Source: Myxococcota bacterium
GTDB taxonomy: Bacteria > Myxococcota_A > UBA9160 > UBA6930
Reading direction: 5' to 3'
NCBI GenBank assembly: GCA_965223705.1
Contig: OZ245015.1
Coordinates: 3,360,001 to 3,424,000 of the forward strand
Length of the DNA stretch: 64,000 nt
Below are positions 24,895-32,674 of this stretch, in pieces; the stretch's first letter is position 1; each line of letters starts with the position of its first letter. The notes below the pieces were generated by a model. That model did no database searches, had not been told where the DNA came from, and worked only from the letters and a program-made list of their open reading frames with translations. The position numbers were made by a program, and so were the translations under genes.

Positions 24895-25455
24895 ATGACG
24901 CAACTCACTCGAATCCCTCGGTCCGAGCTCACCCCGGAACTGGTTGCGCTTCACGACCAGTTGACGAAGGAAGGCGTTGATGCGCGGTTTGTCGAAGCGG
25001 GCGCGAACGCTCCCGAACTCCTCGATTGGTACTTCAACAGCTTCTACGGAAAGGTCTTCTACGATGGCCGTGTCGACGCTCGAACGAAGGAGCTGTTGCG
25101 CCTCAAGCTGTCGAAGACCCACGGCTGCTTTCTCTGAAACCGCGTGAACACTGCCTCGGCGAGGCAGCACGGAGTGACGCAGGCTCAGATCGATGCTCTC
25201 CCCGACGACGTCGAGAACGAGGCATTCTCGGAGAGAGAACGGGCGGTCCTACGAGCGGCCGAACAGATGGTCCTCACCAACCTCCACGGCATGCTCGAGG
25301 ACGGACATTACCAGGCGCTGAAGAAGCACTTCTCCGACGGCGAGATCTTCGAGCTGGGCATGGTGATGGCCGTTCTCTGCGGTTTTGCCAAGTTCTTGTT
25401 CTGCTTCGACTTGGCTGATCGCGAGGACACCTGCCCGATCCACCCAGGCGCGTAG
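24895..25455 (+). CDS. AhpD/carboxymuconolactone decarboxylase-like predicted selenoprotein (CxxU; TGA 25135-25137 read as Sec)
   Basis: ORFs 24895-25137 and 25144-25455 share one frame. Reading through gives KELLRLKLSKTHGCFL-U-NRVN...FSERERAVL...LKKHFSDGEIFEL, one 186-aa CMD domain. A SECIS-like hairpin follows the TGA. Confidence 0.82.
25144..25170 (+). promoter_or_regulatory. Bacterial SECIS-like stem-loop
   Basis: GTG-aaca-CTGCCTC-GGC-GAGGCAG-CAC forms a perfect 7-bp stem with a G-initial loop 20 nt after the UGA. Confidence 0.7.
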
Positions 25456-25461
25456 TTCGGG

Positions 25462-26364
25462 CTACGCGGACGCGGCCTTCGACAACCACTCCCGGATGGC
25501 TTCTCCGATTTCGTGAGGACAGTCCTCCTGGAGAAAATGGATGCCGGGGAGCGTGATCTCCTGCTGGTTGGGCCAGGCCCGACAGATCTCCCGCGGCCGA
25601 CCGACCAGGATCGCGCCGGGTTCCGCATTGATGAACAGTTTCGGGAACGCCGCGGTATTCATGAAGTCGGCGTTTGCCGCGACGGCTTCCACCACGTCCG
25701 TCGGCTGCCCCGCTAGCGGGATCTGGCGCGGCCAAGTCAGCGTCGGCCGCCGGGATTCTCCGGCTTCGGTATACGGGGCGCGGTAGACGTTCATCTCCTC
25801 GTCGCTGAGCTTGCGCTGGATCGCGGCGGGTAGAACTTGTTCGATGAACACGTTTTGCTCGAGGACCATGGCCTCTCCGGCATTCGAACGAAAGCCTTCG
25901 AAGAGCCCCACGAACTCCGGCGGAAAATCGGACCACTCGAGAGGGGTCACGATGGCCTCCATGTACGCAATGGCTCGAACGCGATCGGGGTGTTGTCGTG
26001 CCCACTCAAAGCCGAGGGCCGAGCCCCAATCGTGAATGACCAGCGTCACCGGACCTTCCGGTACCAGCGCATCGATGAAGCCGTTCAGGTAGTGACGATG
26101 CTGCGCGTACGTATAGGAGAACACGGAGGGCTCGGGGAGCTTTTCAGAGTCACCCATTCCGACAAGATCCGGGGCGATGCAACGGGCCCGATCCGCCAGG
26201 TGGGGCATGATGTTTCGCCACAGGTAGGACGAGGTCGGGTTGCCGTGTAGAAACAGGATCGGTTCTCCGGAACCGATCTCGACGTAGGCCATCTCCAGTC
26301 CGTGGACGTCGACCTTTTGTTTCTTCGCGGGGTGGTTCGTTTCGATCGATCGGGCATCGGACAT
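25462..26364 (-). CDS. dhaA: Haloalkane dehalogenase (HLD-II, DhaA/LinB type)
   Basis: LHGNPTSSYLWRNIMP, IHDWGS, YMEA, TLTWPRQIP and GIHFLQED. Confidence 0.92.
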   Translation of the reverse strand: MSDARSIETNHPAKKQKVDVHGLEMAYVEIGSGEPILFLHGNPTSSYLWRNIMPHLADRARCIAPDLVGMGDSEKLPEPSVFSYTYAQHRHYLNGFIDALVPEGPVTLVIHDWGSALGFEWARQHPDRVRAIAYMEAIVTPLEWSDFPPEFVGLFEGFRSNAGEAMVLEQNVFIEQVLPAAIQRKLSDEEMNVYRAPYTEAGESRRPTLTWPRQIPLAGQPTDVVEAVAANADFMNTAAFPKLFINAEPGAILVGRPREICRAWPNQQEITLPGIHFLQEDCPHEIGEAIREWLSKAASA

Positions 26365-26439
26365 CGGGTTCCTCACTTCGCGAAACCAGGGTTGTGCGTT
26401 CGCCGTATACTCTAGGTTACCGGGCCCGAGGAGAACCAC

Positions 26440-27246
26440 ATGAGTGAGAAACTGCGTTTCTTGCACCATCCCGCCTCACAACCGTGCCGAGCGGCGCGCC
26501 AGTTCCTAATCGAAAACGACATCGCTCATGTCGATGAGATCATCGATATCACGACGAACATCAACGAGACCCAAGAATTCAGAGATCGCTACAACCCGAC
26601 GGGGCAAGTGCCTATTCTTGTCGACGGCGACTTCGTGGTGTGGGAGAACGTCGCGATCGGGCGGTACTTGGATGAAAAATTCGAGTGCGAAAGCCACTGG
26701 TTCGGTTCCAGCCTGGAAGAGCGGGCGAAGATCAACCAATTCGTTCAGTGGTACGCGTACACACTGCGACTCGGCGGGGGGGCGTTCCACTGGACGATCT
26801 TTGCTCCGATGATCTATGGGCCGGACAAAGATTTCACCGCGGAACGGAGGAAGGGATATCACGTCCTCTACGAGTCTCTGGAGGTGCTAGAGAACTACTG
26901 GCTGAAGAGCAGCGACTACTTGTGCGGCGAAGAAGTGAGTTACGCGGATCTAGCCGCTTACCACGAGCTGGTGTCGCACGACGCGGGGAACATCATTCCC
27001 GAGAACGTCTGGAAAAAGCATGGCCGCATCACCGCGTGGTTCGAGCGCATGTCGGCGCGGCCGGCGAGCAAGGCGGTGAGTGCGTGGCAGTACGAGACGA
27101 TCCGCAAAGTGCTCGCCGGAGAGATCTCCGTGGAATTCAATCGGCGCACCGCCGTACTGAAAGGAACGGAGGCTTTTGGGGGGCACAACAACGGCATCCC
27201 TCATCTCGGCGAAGAGCGGGACTACCTCGCCGAGGTGGAAGCCTAG
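26440..27246 (+). CDS. dcmA: Dichloromethane dehalogenase-like theta-class glutathione S-transferase
   Basis: KLRFLHHPASQPCRA, YNPTGQVPILVDG, WYAYTLRLGGGAFHWTIFAPMIYG, LVSHDAG, VSAWQYE and RTAVLKGTE...GHNNGI match the remembered DcmA sequence. The catalytic Ser is retained. Confidence 0.85.
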   Translation: MSEKLRFLHHPASQPCRAARQFLIENDIAHVDEIIDITTNINETQEFRDRYNPTGQVPILVDGDFVVWENVAIGRYLDEKFECESHWFGSSLEERAKINQFVQWYAYTLRLGGGAFHWTIFAPMIYGPDKDFTAERRKGYHVLYESLEVLENYWLKSSDYLCGEEVSYADLAAYHELVSHDAGNIIPENVWKKHGRITAWFERMSARPASKAVSAWQYETIRKVLAGEISVEFNRRTAVLKGTEAFGGHNNGIPHLGEERDYLAEVEA

Positions 27247-27283: not shown

Positions 27284-28204
27284 TCAGCCGGCAAAGCGCG
27301 GCTCTGGCACGCCTCGTACGCCCAACCCGTAGATCGCAAAGACCGATCCGGCTTGAAACTGCGGCTTCACTTGCTTCGCGAACCGATCGTGCACGGCCGG
27401 GTGCTTGACGCGTGCCATCGAAGTCACGAACAAGATGTCGAGGTCAGGGCCGCCGAAGATCACACTGGTCACGTTGCGCACGGGCATGCCGATGATGCGG
27501 TCGACCTCACCGTCGGGCGTGTACCGAACCAGCTCTCCGCCGATCACCATCGCGTTCCAGATGCAGCCGTCGGAATCGACGGTTGAACCGTCGTACAAAC
27601 CCGCCATCTCCTTGCTCGAGGCGAAGACCCGACGGTTCGAGACCTCGCCGGTCTCGATCGCATAGTCGTAAGCCCACATCTCCTCGCGGAACGTGTCCGC
27701 GAAGTAGAACGTTTTGTCGTCTGGGCTCCAGCAAGGACCATTCGAGCAAATGATCCCGTTGTCGACCCGGGTCGTCGTGAGATCCGGATCCAGGCGCCAC
27801 AACCCACAGAGGTCGAGCTCCTCCTTGTCGTCCATGCCACCCGCGAAGAAGCGGCCACGTCGATCGACCTTTCCGTCGTTGAGTCGGGTTCGCGGCTCGT
27901 CGGCTTCGATTTTCGTGATTAGCTCGGGTTCACTTCCCGAGTCGAAATCGAAGAAATAGAAACCGTCGTTCATCGCGAGGACAGCGCCGCCCGACTCGCG
28001 TAACACCATGGCCCCCACGTCTTGAGTCGTCCGCCAAGAATCGATCTTTCCGGTCGAGAGTTCGAGGCGCCAGAGCGACGGATTTCCGACGCGGGGTCCC
28101 GTCCCGTCGACCCAGTAGAGTCGGTTCTCGCGGTCGTCCCAAATCGGGCTCTCCCCGAGGTGGTTCTGACACGGGACGAGGGTTTCGATGCGGACGGTCA
28201 CCAC
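27284..28204 (-). CDS. SMP-30/gluconolactonase/LRE family protein
   Basis: LGESPIWD, RLNDGKVD, SNGPCWSPD, DGSTVD and FGGPDL. Confidence 0.92.
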   Translation of the reverse strand: MVTVRIETLVPCQNHLGESPIWDDRENRLYWVDGTGPRVGNPSLWRLELSTGKIDSWRTTQDVGAMVLRESGGAVLAMNDGFYFFDFDSGSEPELITKIEADEPRTRLNDGKVDRRGRFFAGGMDDKEELDLCGLWRLDPDLTTTRVDNGIICSNGPCWSPDDKTFYFADTFREEMWAYDYAIETGEVSNRRVFASSKEMAGLYDGSTVDSDGCIWNAMVIGGELVRYTPDGEVDRIIGMPVRNVTSVIFGGPDLDILFVTSMARVKHPAVHDRFAKQVKPQFQAGSVFAIYGLGVRGVPEPRFAG

Positions 28205-28939: not shown

Positions 28940-31357
28940 CTACGGCTTCCCTCTGCCCGAGAGCTCCCTCGCGGCATCGACGTCGATGCTGCGAAGATGC
29001 AGGTCTCGCTGTGGGAACGGAATCTCGATATCGGCTTCCGTGAGGGCGCGGTTGATCTCCGTGTTGATCCGTGACTGTACGACGTACCAGTCGTCGTAGT
29101 CCGCGATCCAAACGCGAAGTTCGAAATCGAGCGAGCTATCCCCGTGCCCGCGAAACAGCGCCACCGGCGACGGGTAGCTGAGCGATTTTTCTTCGCGTTC
29201 GGCAACGCCCCGGAGAAGCTCGAGGACGCGGTCGGGCTCTGTTCCGTACTTCACGCCAATGGGGATGTCGACCCGACGCGTTTTGTCGGAAAGCGTCCAG
29301 TTCGTCACTTGCTGCGAAATGAGATCCGCATTGGGAACAATGATCTCGGAGCCCTGATACGTTCGAAGGGTGCTCGATCGGATTCCGATACGACGGATGA
29401 CGCCCAGTTGATTCCCCAGGTCGATCGTGTCTCCGACTTGGATCGGACGTTCAAAGAGCAGAATGATTCCGCTCACGAAGTTGTTGACGACATTCTGCAA
29501 GCCGAAACCGATTCCCACGCCGAACGCTCCAGCCAACAAAGCAAACCGGCTCAGGTCGATGCCGGCAGCCGCCACGGCGAGAAGAAAGCCCAGGAACAAG
29601 ATCACGTACTGTGCCGTGGCGCTAACCGCGTGGGGTATCCCCCGTCCGGTCCGTATTCTCGGGAAGACGTCTTCCATCAAGAGGAAGCGCACGACCCGGG
29701 AGAAGACGATGGATGCGGCGATCGTGATCGCGAAAGCCGCCACGTCTCCGAGCGACACCGCGGCCTCACCCCAAGTGACGGATGTCGTCAACGCCGTTCT
29801 GGCCGCGGCGACCACGGGATCTCGGACAGCGAACGACCCCAGGCTCAGGTAGGCCCACAGCAGCGCGCCCGCGATCGAGATCCCTCTGAGGATCCAACCC
29901 ACGGCGACGCCGCGACGGGCGCGCAGGAATTGGAGTTTTTGTGCGCGCGCAGTCCGCGTACCCACATCGACTGCGGTCCACAGAATCTGCACGCCGGCGT
30001 ACACAGCGATCGCGGTATAAACCGTCGCAAGCATGCCCTCTCCGAGCACTTTGCTGAGTGAGAAGTAGCCCAAAACGTTCGCGAGAAACGAGACGGAGAA
30101 GACGACGAGAGCGACGCGGACGGCGGTACCGAGCCAACGCGGGACCGAATTGGCGTCGGGCACCTTCGCCAAACGAGCGGGTCGCAGCAGTAGAATGCAC
30201 AAACACGAAGCCGCCACACACTCGATCGCGAAAATCACGCGGCTCTCGAGCGCGGCACCCTGAAACGCGGCGCGAAGGCGGTCGACGACATAGAACGCGG
30301 CGACGGCGTACAAGACCGGGCGGAATTCGGTGTGCGTGAGACGCGGAAGCAGCACCACGAGCGGCAGTAGCAGAAGCAGACCCACACCATCAAAGAACGC
30401 ACTGGGAGCGAGTGGGAAAATCCAATACGTCAATAGCAGTGCCGCGACGAGTGCGAGCGCCAACGGGTGCTCGAGCGCTTCCGCGGACCGCTCGATTTTC
30501 CCGCCAGCCGCCCGACGCGCCGCAACACTCCGCTTGAGATTACGCGCAGCGAGCCACGCGACCACGAAGAAAAGGGCGACCAAACCGACGTGGCGAGGCC
30601 TCTCCCCGACGAACCCGCGGATCGCGACCCAATTCGTTTTGAGTGCGGTCGCGATGTTCGCGGTCGGTTTCGCGTCGCTGTCGGAAAGCGCCGACCAGAT
30701 CGGCGCACTGTCGGGTTCAAATAGGCGATCGCGAATCGTGGCTCGCGATTCATCGATTGACTCCAAGACCTCAGAAGCGAGAAGTTCCTGCTGGGCAACC
30801 CGGTTCTGCAAACCCAAGACTTCGCCGCGACGCCTCGAGACGACTTCGCGGACGTCCTTGATCTCCTCCTCGGAGCGCGTGATCGCCGCGATGACTTCGT
30901 CGGGCGCGCCCCTTTCGTTTGCGGACGTCAAGCTCGCGGACCAGACCTGGTCGAGCGACCGGAGCTTCTCGACTTCCCGTCCCAGTCGCGCGACCCTCCG
31001 AGTGAGCGTGGTGCGCCACGCTTCGAGTTCGCTGGCCTGCCGCCTCCAATCGCGTTCCAGAGAGTTGAGCTTTGCGAGCGCCGGCCGATGTTTCAGCAAC
31101 GTTTGGGTCTCCACCCGTCGTCGCTCCAGCTCGGAAATAGCCCCCGCGAGAAGATCTTTGACAGCTTCGATCGATACGTCGGGCTCTGCCAAGGCCCGCG
31201 ACCGTCTCAGTAGGCTCGCCGTTTCCTCCGCACGCTCGGCGACTTCCGCAACGGGTATGGGCTGAGGGAGAGAGGGGCCGTCCTCGGCAGGGGCGTCCTC
31301 GCCCAGCGCCGGCAGCGAAAGCAAGAACCAAACAACGGCAAAGAAGGCTTGGCGCAT
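28940..31357 (-). CDS. Large MscS/MscK-family mechanosensitive channel
   Basis: Signal peptide, coiled coil, multiple TMs, GIGFGLQNVVNNFVSG, ERPIQVGD, NWTLSD and IPFPQRDLH. Confidence 0.92.
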   Translation of the reverse strand: MRQAFFAVVWFLLSLPALGEDAPAEDGPSLPQPIPVAEVAERAEETASLLRRSRALAEPDVSIEAVKDLLAGAISELERRRVETQTLLKHRPALAKLNSLERDWRRQASELEAWRTTLTRRVARLGREVEKLRSLDQVWSASLTSANERGAPDEVIAAITRSEEEIKDVREVVSRRRGEVLGLQNRVAQQELLASEVLESIDESRATIRDRLFEPDSAPIWSALSDSDAKPTANIATALKTNWVAIRGFVGERPRHVGLVALFFVVAWLAARNLKRSVAARRAAGGKIERSAEALEHPLALALVAALLLTYWIFPLAPSAFFDGVGLLLLLPLVVLLPRLTHTEFRPVLYAVAAFYVVDRLRAAFQGAALESRVIFAIECVAASCLCILLLRPARLAKVPDANSVPRWLGTAVRVALVVFSVSFLANVLGYFSLSKVLGEGMLATVYTAIAVYAGVQILWTAVDVGTRTARAQKLQFLRARRGVAVGWILRGISIAGALLWAYLSLGSFAVRDPVVAAARTALTTSVTWGEAAVSLGDVAAFAITIAASIVFSRVVRFLLMEDVFPRIRTGRGIPHAVSATAQYVILFLGFLLAVAAAGIDLSRFALLAGAFGVGIGFGLQNVVNNFVSGIILLFERPIQVGDTIDLGNQLGVIRRIGIRSSTLRTYQGSEIIVPNADLISQQVTNWTLSDKTRRVDIPIGVKYGTEPDRVLELLRGVAEREEKSLSYPSPVALFRGHGDSSLDFELRVWIADYDDWYVVQSRINTEINRALTEADIEIPFPQRDLHLRSIDVDAARELSGRGKP

Positions 31358-31432
31358 TTCCCTGTGATCCTAGCCGAGCCGGAACTGGCGGGGGCGGCTA
31401 CGGTCTGCGCGGCGTGCTTCGGGAGAAACTCG

Positions 31433-31816
31433 ATGTCGAAAGTCCATACGCCTAGGAAGATTGCGGCGACTCTCACCGACCTCTGGTCCCCGCAAATTCT
31501 CGCCGAGGTCGATGACGCCTACATCAAGGTCGCCAAAGTCGAAGGCACCCTCGCCTGGCACAGCCACGACGATGAAGACGAGCTCTTCTACGTGCTCAAA
31601 GGGTGCCTCAGGATCGAACTCGAGCACGAAACGGTAGAGCTCGACGAAGGCGACCTCTTCGTGGTCCCGAAAGGCACCCCGCACAACCCGATCGCAGAAT
31701 CCGAATGTCACATCCTGCTGATCGAGCGGAAGACAACCCTTCACACCGGAGGTGTCGTGACAGACAAAACGCGATCGATCGAGGAGCAACTCCGAGGCCG
31801 CCCCCGAGCTCGCTAG
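31433..31816 (+). CDS. Cupin-domain protein
   Basis: WSPQI, WHSHDDEDELFYVLKG and FVVPKGTPHNP. Confidence 0.88.
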   Translation: MSKVHTPRKIAATLTDLWSPQILAEVDDAYIKVAKVEGTLAWHSHDDEDELFYVLKGCLRIELEHETVELDEGDLFVVPKGTPHNPIAESECHILLIERKTTLHTGGVVTDKTRSIEEQLRGRPRAR

Positions 31817-32478
31817 ATATCGATCTCCCGTGCCCGAACGATGAATCGCTGTGGGGCGCTGCCGACCCAGTAAAACGGGTAACACGTAACGAGGGTCAAC
31901 GTAGGCGTGGCCGTGGGATCGAGGACGTGAACGGCTTCCGGTTCGACAACACGGATGAGATCGACGGCAAAGGTCCGCGTCCGCCCGGGTGTCTCGATCG
32001 TAAAGTGGTCTCCCATGCGCACGTGGCGGAGTGCTCGAAAAAAACCATCCCGGTGGCCGGCGATCCCGATGTTGCCCACCGCCGCGGTAAGGGGTGCCGT
32101 TCCCTCGATCCGACCCACGCCTCGATTGAGGGACCACTCCCCGGTCCCTTCGAGGATGAGTGCGTCAATTCGCCCGTCGGCACTCCGTAGAATTCCGCCT
32201 CTGGGCGCCGCGTCGCTGTGGACGAGGGAACGGCGAAAATGACGGATGCGACTCGAAGACCATTCGGTCGTGTCGGCCGCGTAAGCCTTGGCGTCTACGC
32301 GGTCGTCTGACGCGACATCGAGGGGCTTCGCCCAAGCGGTTTGCGACGAGCGAGAGGCCGCTTCGAATCTGGATTTTTCGACAAAACCGACGAGACGAGG
32401 CAGGGCGTAGACAACGATCGCAACCACGGCCGCGGCGCCCGCCGCGATCCACGCGACGCGTTCGACCCGTGAACACAT
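31813..32478 (-). CDS. Sortase (class D-like)
   Basis: N-terminal TM, AGHRDGFF, LTLVTCYPF and a catalytic Arg (APQR). GGAGGT RBS. Confidence 0.9.
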   Translation of the reverse strand: MCSRVERVAWIAAGAAAVVAIVVYALPRLVGFVEKSRFEAASRSSQTAWAKPLDVASDDRVDAKAYAADTTEWSSSRIRHFRRSLVHSDAAPRGGILRSADGRIDALILEGTGEWSLNRGVGRIEGTAPLTAAVGNIGIAGHRDGFFRALRHVRMGDHFTIETPGRTRTFAVDLIRVVEPEAVHVLDPTATPTLTLVTCYPFYWVGSAPQRFIVRAREIDI

Positions 32479-32512
32479 ACCTCCGACATCGAACCGCATA
32501 GGAGAATGGGAT

Positions 32513-32528
32513 TGCAGTTCCCGTGCCC
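32513..32528 (-). promoter_or_regulatory. Sigma-54-like promoter facing the sortase
   Basis: Minus strand GGGCAC-GGGAA-CTGCA (GG-N10-GC), about 35 nt upstream of the start codon. Confidence 0.5.
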
Positions 32529-32536
32529 AGTCGGTA

Positions 32537-32552
32537 CGGCACACAACTTGCG
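32537..32552 (+). promoter_or_regulatory. Sigma-54-like promoter facing mscS
   Basis: CGGCAC-ACAAC-TTGCG (GG-N10-GC). Confidence 0.55.
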
Positions 32553-32674
32553 TTCCCGAGAGTCGAGAACTGCGATGGCCTCGTTTCTCGGGATGCGCAT
32601 CTCGACGAACTCGTGGAAAACGAGCGGGCCGGAGACGAGAATTTGCTCACTCCGAATGGAATCGCAGAGTAGCC

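Follow-up and report, generated by a model that had tools for sequence, protein, structure and literature searches.

The dcmA-like gene analysed here encodes a glutathione transferase (GST) that phylogeny places in the DcmA family, inside the clade spanned by the characterised dichloromethane dehalogenases. By the same sequence-based reasoning, the protein and its closest relatives form a third DcmA subfamily, here called clade C, which is sister to the DM4 type. The enzyme is predicted, with a probability that we put at about 0.7, to convert a dihalomethane and glutathione (GSH) into formaldehyde and two HX, whereupon the FrmA, FghA and formate dehydrogenase (FDH) of the host would oxidise the formaldehyde. 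The gene lies within a 64,000-nucleotide stretch of the genome of a Myxococcota bacterium (hereafter 'the window'), and its immediate surroundings comprise the following features.

25462..26364, minus strand: haloalkane dehalogenase gene (dhaA/linB type, 300 amino acids; NF002938, 421.7 bits against a cut-off of 241)
26365..26439: 75-bp intergenic region between the two divergent genes, with a TATACT hexamer at 26406-26411
26428..26433, plus strand: Shine-Dalgarno-like GAGGAG, recognised from the sequence, 6 nt 5ʹ of the dcmA-like ATG
26440..27246, plus strand: dcmA-like gene, clade C of the DcmA (dichloromethane dehalogenase / theta-like GST) family, 268 amino acids, ATG start
26476..26478, plus strand: codon of S13, the catalytic Ser (DM11 Ser12), in HPASQPCR
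26788..26793, plus strand: codons of H117 and W118 (DM11 H116/W117), kept in groups A, B and C, F/Y in outgroup D
27284..28204, minus strand: convergent SMP-30/gluconolactonase gene, which sits where relatives have dcmB

Aligned without gaps along its whole length, the protein is identical to DM11 DcmA (P43387) at 166 of 265 positions (62.6%), and it shares 59.4% identity with DM4 DcmA (P21161) over 271 alignment columns. The two characterised enzymes are 58.8% identical, and the fact that the protein is as near to each of them as they are to one another counts for DcmA function. The original prediction, made from the sequence alone, had described DcmA-specific blocks throughout the protein and an intact catalytic Ser, and both are confirmed. 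The blocks, including the equivalents of H116/W117 and the C-terminal tail, extend over the full length, and S13 aligns with S13 of DM11 DcmA (called Ser12 when the initiator Met is not counted), a residue that shows no variation across the other DcmA-family rows (107/107). In DM11 DcmA, Ser12 and not Tyr6 is reportedly required for activity, according to the title of one study, and we take His8, His116 and Trp117 to be residues with a role in that activity. The protein retains H9, S13, H117 and W118, all common to it and to DM11 DcmA (Methylophilus leisingeri), which falls in the same length class (267 versus 268 amino acids) but has Tyr7 where our protein has Phe. Of the 149 residues shared by DM4 and DM11 DcmA, 126 are kept and 23 are changed. 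Positions 136-137 are mostly R-R in clade C, and this pair, along with the other changes at positions common to DM4 and DM11, may denote an altered pocket.

Database models assign the protein only to GST domains in Pfam, as they do DM4 and DM11 DcmA, and no NCBIfam model exceeds its cut-off for any of the three. The best solved structure by sequence is a theta-class GST T1, at just E=1.2e-21. Theta-class enzymes (GSTT1/GSTT2; 2c3n, 1ljr) share with our protein the Ser-type SQPCR motif and the GST fold, but the match is only E~1e-21 and they lack the DcmA-specific RLGGGAFHW and the C-terminal tail. An AlphaFold model of the monomer (mean pLDDT 86.6, with residues 239-259 unreliable) has the GST-type order of strands and helices, so that a GST fold is predicted from sequence matches and from the secondary structure of the model. 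DcmA is a hexamer.

A protein search yielded 194 matches from 786 candidates. Ranked directly after the query among the matches listed are 25 clusters at 70-85% identity, all of which outscore DM11 DcmA (63%); a cluster look-up identified P0039 as DM11 DcmA and P0121 as DM4 DcmA. When 1.84 billion representatives were searched with a profile, one full-length clade member scored 509 bits, followed mostly by partial family sequences and then by GSTs of generic length at no more than 186 bits. This drop in score indicates that the DcmA family is discrete.

Trees were built from 117 rows, with nine generic GSTs as the outgroup, and more carefully from 60 rows, and the groups A-D were named once the first tree had been seen. 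Group A is the DM4 type, comprising the dcmRABC systems of Methylorubrum extorquens DM4 (P21161), Hyphomicrobium GJ21/MC8b and Ancylobacter. Group B contains DM11 DcmA, Binatia and some Gammaproteobacteria; clade C contains our protein and relatives 70-87% identical to it; and group D is a deeper branch whose members share 45-53% identity with it. In the 60-row tree, support is 100/100 for A+B+C, 100/99 for C and 98/87 for A+C, and a long stem (0.26) leads to clade C. DM11 DcmA therein belongs to a separate, strongly supported clade. Forcing our protein into D, outside A+B+C, is rejected (p-AU 2.7e-8, 39-row subset), in agreement with the earlier claim that it is a DcmA homolog and not a generic GST, and all 22 of the 22 columns that separate A/B/C from D are kept. 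The suggestion of a possibly ancestral lineage fared less well. Because the protein is bracketed by two characterised enzyme types, it is no ancestral branch; the deeper-branching lineage is group D, and clade C is sister to the DM4 type and keeps dcmR and/or dcmB at most of its loci, as described below. The gene is under purifying selection, with dN of 0.09-0.14 against dS of 1.3 to saturated for seven relatives, a contrast that averages the whole path between the gene and each relative. Among the titles and abstracts searched in the literature, we found no description of clade C or its dcmRAB loci, and we found no assay of any clade-C protein.

Scanning GTDB genomes by alignment gave 191 confirmed stretches, and the best 80 loci were analysed. 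Thirty-six of these 80 belong to clade C, and all counts out of 36 refer to this set from the best 80 of 191; several of its loci end at contig edges, making the accessory-gene counts lower bounds. Going by record titles, uncultured Alphaproteobacteria (Rhodospirillales, Hyphomicrobiales, Kiloniellales, Stappiaceae, Sedimentitalea, Tepidamorphus) make up most of the hosts, alongside some Gammaproteobacteria and a single Myxococcota. We infer from record names, some of which carry no hint of habitat, that the clade is largely marine. A dcmR homologue is present at no fewer than 20 of the 36 loci (19 divergent, one downstream) and dcmB (CmcJ/NvfI) at no fewer than 21; at least 27 have one or both, and nine have neither. 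No dcmC was found at any of the 36. Nitrilase genes occur at a minimum of seven of the loci and GFA-domain genes at a minimum of four. Four loci (L031, L040, L042 and L051) place a nitrilase and a CoA-transferase III gene beside dcmA, with a GFA-domain gene in three of the four.

All 12 of the regulators scanned, 11 of them from clade C, combine HTH_17 and MEDS. Clade-C DcmR is 41-46% identical to GJ21 DcmR, and clade-C DcmB is 52-58% identical to GJ21 DcmB; the groups in a DcmB tree mirror the DcmA groups, and dcmR and dcmB are present in A, B and C. The 19 divergent dcmR-dcmA loci have a common TTGACA-centred promoter block, approximately ATATACTTT...TTTGATTGACAA...TGTTAA. When each locus was scored with itself left out, 18 of the 19 reach 10-69 while the background does not exceed -4.8, a contrast somewhat inflated by the anchoring of sites on TTGACA. 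The 17 clade-C loci that lack a divergent dcmR stay at or below -2. With up to one mismatch allowed, the DM4 operator motif turned up in GJ21 and Ancylobacter and at no other locus. The dcmR/dcmB pattern of clade C recurs on metagenome contigs. Among 204 selected neighbour ORFs, the 128 that were scanned include no transposase family at E<=1e-15 (2 of 5 were positive in the GJ21 control), and a short IS-like fragment 5ʹ of locus L048 was spotted by eye only. Clade-C relatives thus resemble group A in their dcmR-dcmA-dcmB order, their TTGACA promoter and a nearby nitrilase. The DM4 and DM11 dcmA promoters are likewise reported to carry TTGACA (PMC9320726).

These neighbourhoods bear on a second reading of the clade, which is that its enzymes derive from DcmA but have changed their preference to a different small electrophile (a methyl or ethyl halide, a halo-nitrile or a small epoxide), leaving dihalomethane turnover weak or incidental. 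DM11 DcmA itself also conjugates monohaloalkanes, which speaks for such a shift, as do the long stem branch, the clade-typical substitutions N70 and R136/R137, the lack of dcmC at all 36 loci and the nitrilase, GFA-domain and CoA-transferase neighbours at four to seven of the 36 (best 80 of 191). Yet all of the A/B/C signature columns are kept, the DcmR-type MEDS sensor and dcmB are retained, the DcmB tree mirrors the DcmA groups, and a nitrilase adjoins the proven dcm genes of DM4 and MC8b as well, according to PMC7760279. We therefore consider a change of substrate unlikely and favour dihalomethane dehalogenation.

The locus in the window departs from the arrangement of its relatives. Neither dcmB nor dcmC is present beside the gene, and in the host genome (4.56 Mb, 95% complete) no match was found to DcmR or MEDS, nor to DcmC. 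The 75-bp gap lacks TTGACA, the DM4 motif and any promoter motif of the clade-C dcmR-dcmA type (score -20.5, within background), and a sigma-70 scan of it gave 0 sites, leaving no clear promoter. The 55 window ORFs scanned (11 + 44) include no transposase, and hence no flanking IS elements were found; a single sub-threshold HTH_Tnp_1 match falls inside a MerR regulator. The gene therefore does stand outside the usual dcmRABC and IS context, as originally proposed. Since most clade-C loci keep dcmR and/or dcmB, the orphan state of this copy, which is without dcmR, dcmB or the promoter, is likely derived; its nearest tree neighbours with known loci (L036 and L286) are orphans too. The gene probably arrived by lateral transfer, already as an orphan, and would run without DcmR control. 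Its codon use is host-like (GC3 0.76 against a host median of 0.78; CAI at the 36th percentile of 1163 genes), which, with the saturated dS, rules out a recent transfer. Carriage on a plasmid was also considered, and 72,556 plasmids gave no match at E<=1e-40. A free-standing DcmB-like CmcJ/NvfI oxidoreductase gene lies 3ʹ of selO, 1 Mb from the dcmA-like gene (C1:2387784-2388728). Its product is 63.7% identical to a clade-C DcmB, but in the tree this protein does not fall within the DcmB branch of clade C, and the gene was rejected as a lost partner; close homologues occur in 2 of 60 relatives, which lack DcmA.

An orphan of this kind might retain its activity on dihalomethanes while being barely expressed, as one of many detoxifying GSTs that carry no real flux. 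The missing regulator and promoter motif point that way, and three further GST genes lie within 9 kb of the gene, with 11 GST-like matches genome-wide. However, the reading frame is intact and preceded by a good ribosome-binding site, codon use matches the host, and dN, averaged along the entire path between the gene and its relatives, remains far below dS. We consider an idle gene quite improbable and retain active dihalomethane dehalogenation as the preferred reading.

The original prediction also drew attention to dhaA in the position of dcmR. The divergent dhaA gene is indeed there, 75 bp away, but the arrangement is not conserved: no dhaA was found near the 36 clade-C genome loci (best 80 of 191) or the 72 metagenome loci screened. 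The dhaA-dcmA junction is crossed by a single Logan contig (25225-32592), so the adjacency is no assembly join, although this contig probably comes from the source sample and adds no independent support. We take the HDW / E / HF motifs of the DhaA-like protein to be intact from general knowledge of alpha/beta-hydrolases, and the host carries a second dhaA-type copy. That the gene is an ancestral, pre-dcmR dcmA co-regulated with dhaA as a dehalogenation pair is very improbable and in its ancestry part largely refuted, for although both genes share one divergent gap, a head-to-head dhaA occurs once in group D (L079, with looser cases at L081 and L057) and a basal clade C is only weakly rejected (p-AU 0.042, 39-row subset), the gene is nested in clade C beside dcmR-bearing loci, dcmR and dcmB span groups A to C, dhaA is absent from the clade-C loci screened, and dhaA homologues occur in 22 of 40 relatives of the host, which makes chance adjacency plausible.

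Whether the host could process the formaldehyde released by dihalomethane dehalogenation was judged from its genome. The earlier statement that C1 genes are absent holds for the 55 window ORFs scanned and fails for the genome, where GshB, FrmA, FghA and FDH have matches above cut-off; the formaldehyde oxidation genes for which a genome search had been advised are thus present. Also encoded are FtfL, a ClC channel and a xoxF-xoxJ-cytochrome c cluster (C1:2323746-2326716, L116). In the PDB, the host XoxF has its three best matches in 4mae and a pair of XoxF entries, with the MxaF entries ranking below them, and the protein is 78-79% identical to Binatia copies. The host therefore has the methanol dehydrogenase and the formaldehyde and formate oxidation genes of an aerobic methylotroph. 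Unlike the host of DM11 DcmA, however, it is no classical methylotroph: Fae, Mch and RuMP synthase have no match in its genome, and its growth on C1 compounds is accordingly unsupported. Luciferase-like monooxygenases are hugely expanded in this genome (dozens of loci), and 12 PQQ dehydrogenases exceed their cut-offs.

No DcmA-level match was found in 60 sampled relatives of the host. Across its order, 2 of 193 genomes (this one included) encode DcmA and 4 of 193 encode XoxF, the two with DcmA being among these four. With the present genome left out, the probability of this overlap by chance is 3/192 = 0.016, a value that rests on one other genome; genome G118 and locus L036 were not taken as independent. 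FrmA is encoded by 32 of the 36 clade-C hosts (best 80 of 191), but also by 31 of 40 relatives that lack DcmA. Its co-occurrence was dropped as evidence, because a gene equally common without DcmA permits the pathway and does not point to it. In the same 36 clade-C hosts, whose genomes are incomplete, methanol dehydrogenase was found in 13 and Mch in three.

The candidate substrates are CH2Cl2, CH2Br2, CH2I2 and mixed forms. In the proposed reaction Ser13 would activate GSH, GS- would displace one halide from CH2X2, and the resulting S-halomethyl-glutathione would hydrolyse to S-hydroxymethyl-glutathione/formaldehyde; these are the intermediate steps that DcmA follows between GSH attack and formaldehyde release. 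FrmA, FghA and formate dehydrogenase of the host could then oxidise formaldehyde to CO2, providing both reducing power and detoxification. Production of formaldehyde and two HX from CH2X2 with GSH is the reaction described for DcmA (PMC5585157). According to PMC12750041, dcmA is the only essential gene and DcmR acts as a repressor, so the orphan copy could work at an unregulated level. When dcmA was transferred alone, recipients are described as growing poorly until chloride export improved (PMC4271186).

Tentatively, and with some doubt, we extend this picture to the clade as a whole. Clade C may be a natural dcm reservoir, in which a dcmR-dcmA-dcmB module serves uncultured, largely marine Alpha- and Gammaproteobacteria that consume biogenic dibromomethane, diiodomethane or natural dichloromethane (DCM); the industrial DM4-type degraders would be a sister offshoot, and orphan copies would pass the activity to XoxF-bearing Myxococcota. 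The account in PMC7760279 presents dcmA as highly conserved and as restricted to methylotrophs that degrade pollutants, and MC8b as free of IS elements and the most divergent dcm system known. Natural dibromomethane has already been suggested in print as the substrate on which DcmA evolved (review PMC8913905), marine CH2Br2 degradation has been described as unresolved (PMC6594743), and marine systems are named as a main natural source of DCM (bioRxiv 2021.08.30.458270). What matters here is clade C as a testable natural reservoir, since dozens of genes, a regulator and a promoter motif make the natural-substrate idea directly accessible to experiment. The earlier expectation that the gene would bear on the natural-substrate question is in this sense borne out, with the gene itself, as a secondary orphan, being less informative than its dcmR-linked relatives. 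If the proposal is true, clade-C carriers would be an unrecognised aerobic sink for short-lived halocarbons relevant to ozone. Because DM4-type dcmA primers failed on the much closer MC8b gene (PMC7760279), they would likely miss clade C, and aerobic dihalomethane sinks would be undercounted.

Several further observations concern the window. Two in-frame ORFs at 24895-25455 (plus strand), read through a TGA, give a 186-residue AhpD/CMD-family protein with a CxxU motif that is likely a selenoprotein; the host carries tRNA-SeC, and a hairpin 3ʹ of the ORFs is no more stable than shuffled sequences. A strain-variable island probably lies 5 kb from the dcmA-like gene. A 99.8% copy of the region 30035-32592 ends a second contig of 17 kb (G000:C2, L360), the remaining 14.4 kb of which resemble C1:3.65-3.68 Mb at 72-84%, and Logan contigs also end at 32592.

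Other observations concern the remaining groups. Group D (L078-L096) is a large sister family with neither dcmR nor dcmB at its 17 genome loci (best 80 of 191), and four of its metagenome loci (L333, L335, L338 and L341) have a DcmR homologue. In group B, dcmA is accompanied at 19 of 25 loci (best 80 of 191) by a gene for an AhpD-related (seleno)protein (NF041238), which in most cases is divergently oriented and often has a luciferase-like monooxygenase gene alongside. A single Binatota genome, from Bin18, is reported to contain dcmA (PMC8262859). Our scan indicates that the gene is far commoner in Binatia, with loci that lack dcmR in the series L052-L066, L069, L075, L077 and L086. The Binatota genes resemble the Myxococcota copy in having no dcmR, an uncultured host and a related XoxF, but they belong to group B, their products are 64-66% identical to our protein, and they lie beside genes for AhpD-type selenoproteins and luciferase-like monooxygenases. 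Three DM11-like gammaproteobacterial loci (L068, L072 and L073) combine dcmB with a divergent dcmC (43-46% identical to GJ21), and at two of them, L072 and L073, a ClC channel gene is present as well, a pairing of dcmA with clcA that occurs in nature.
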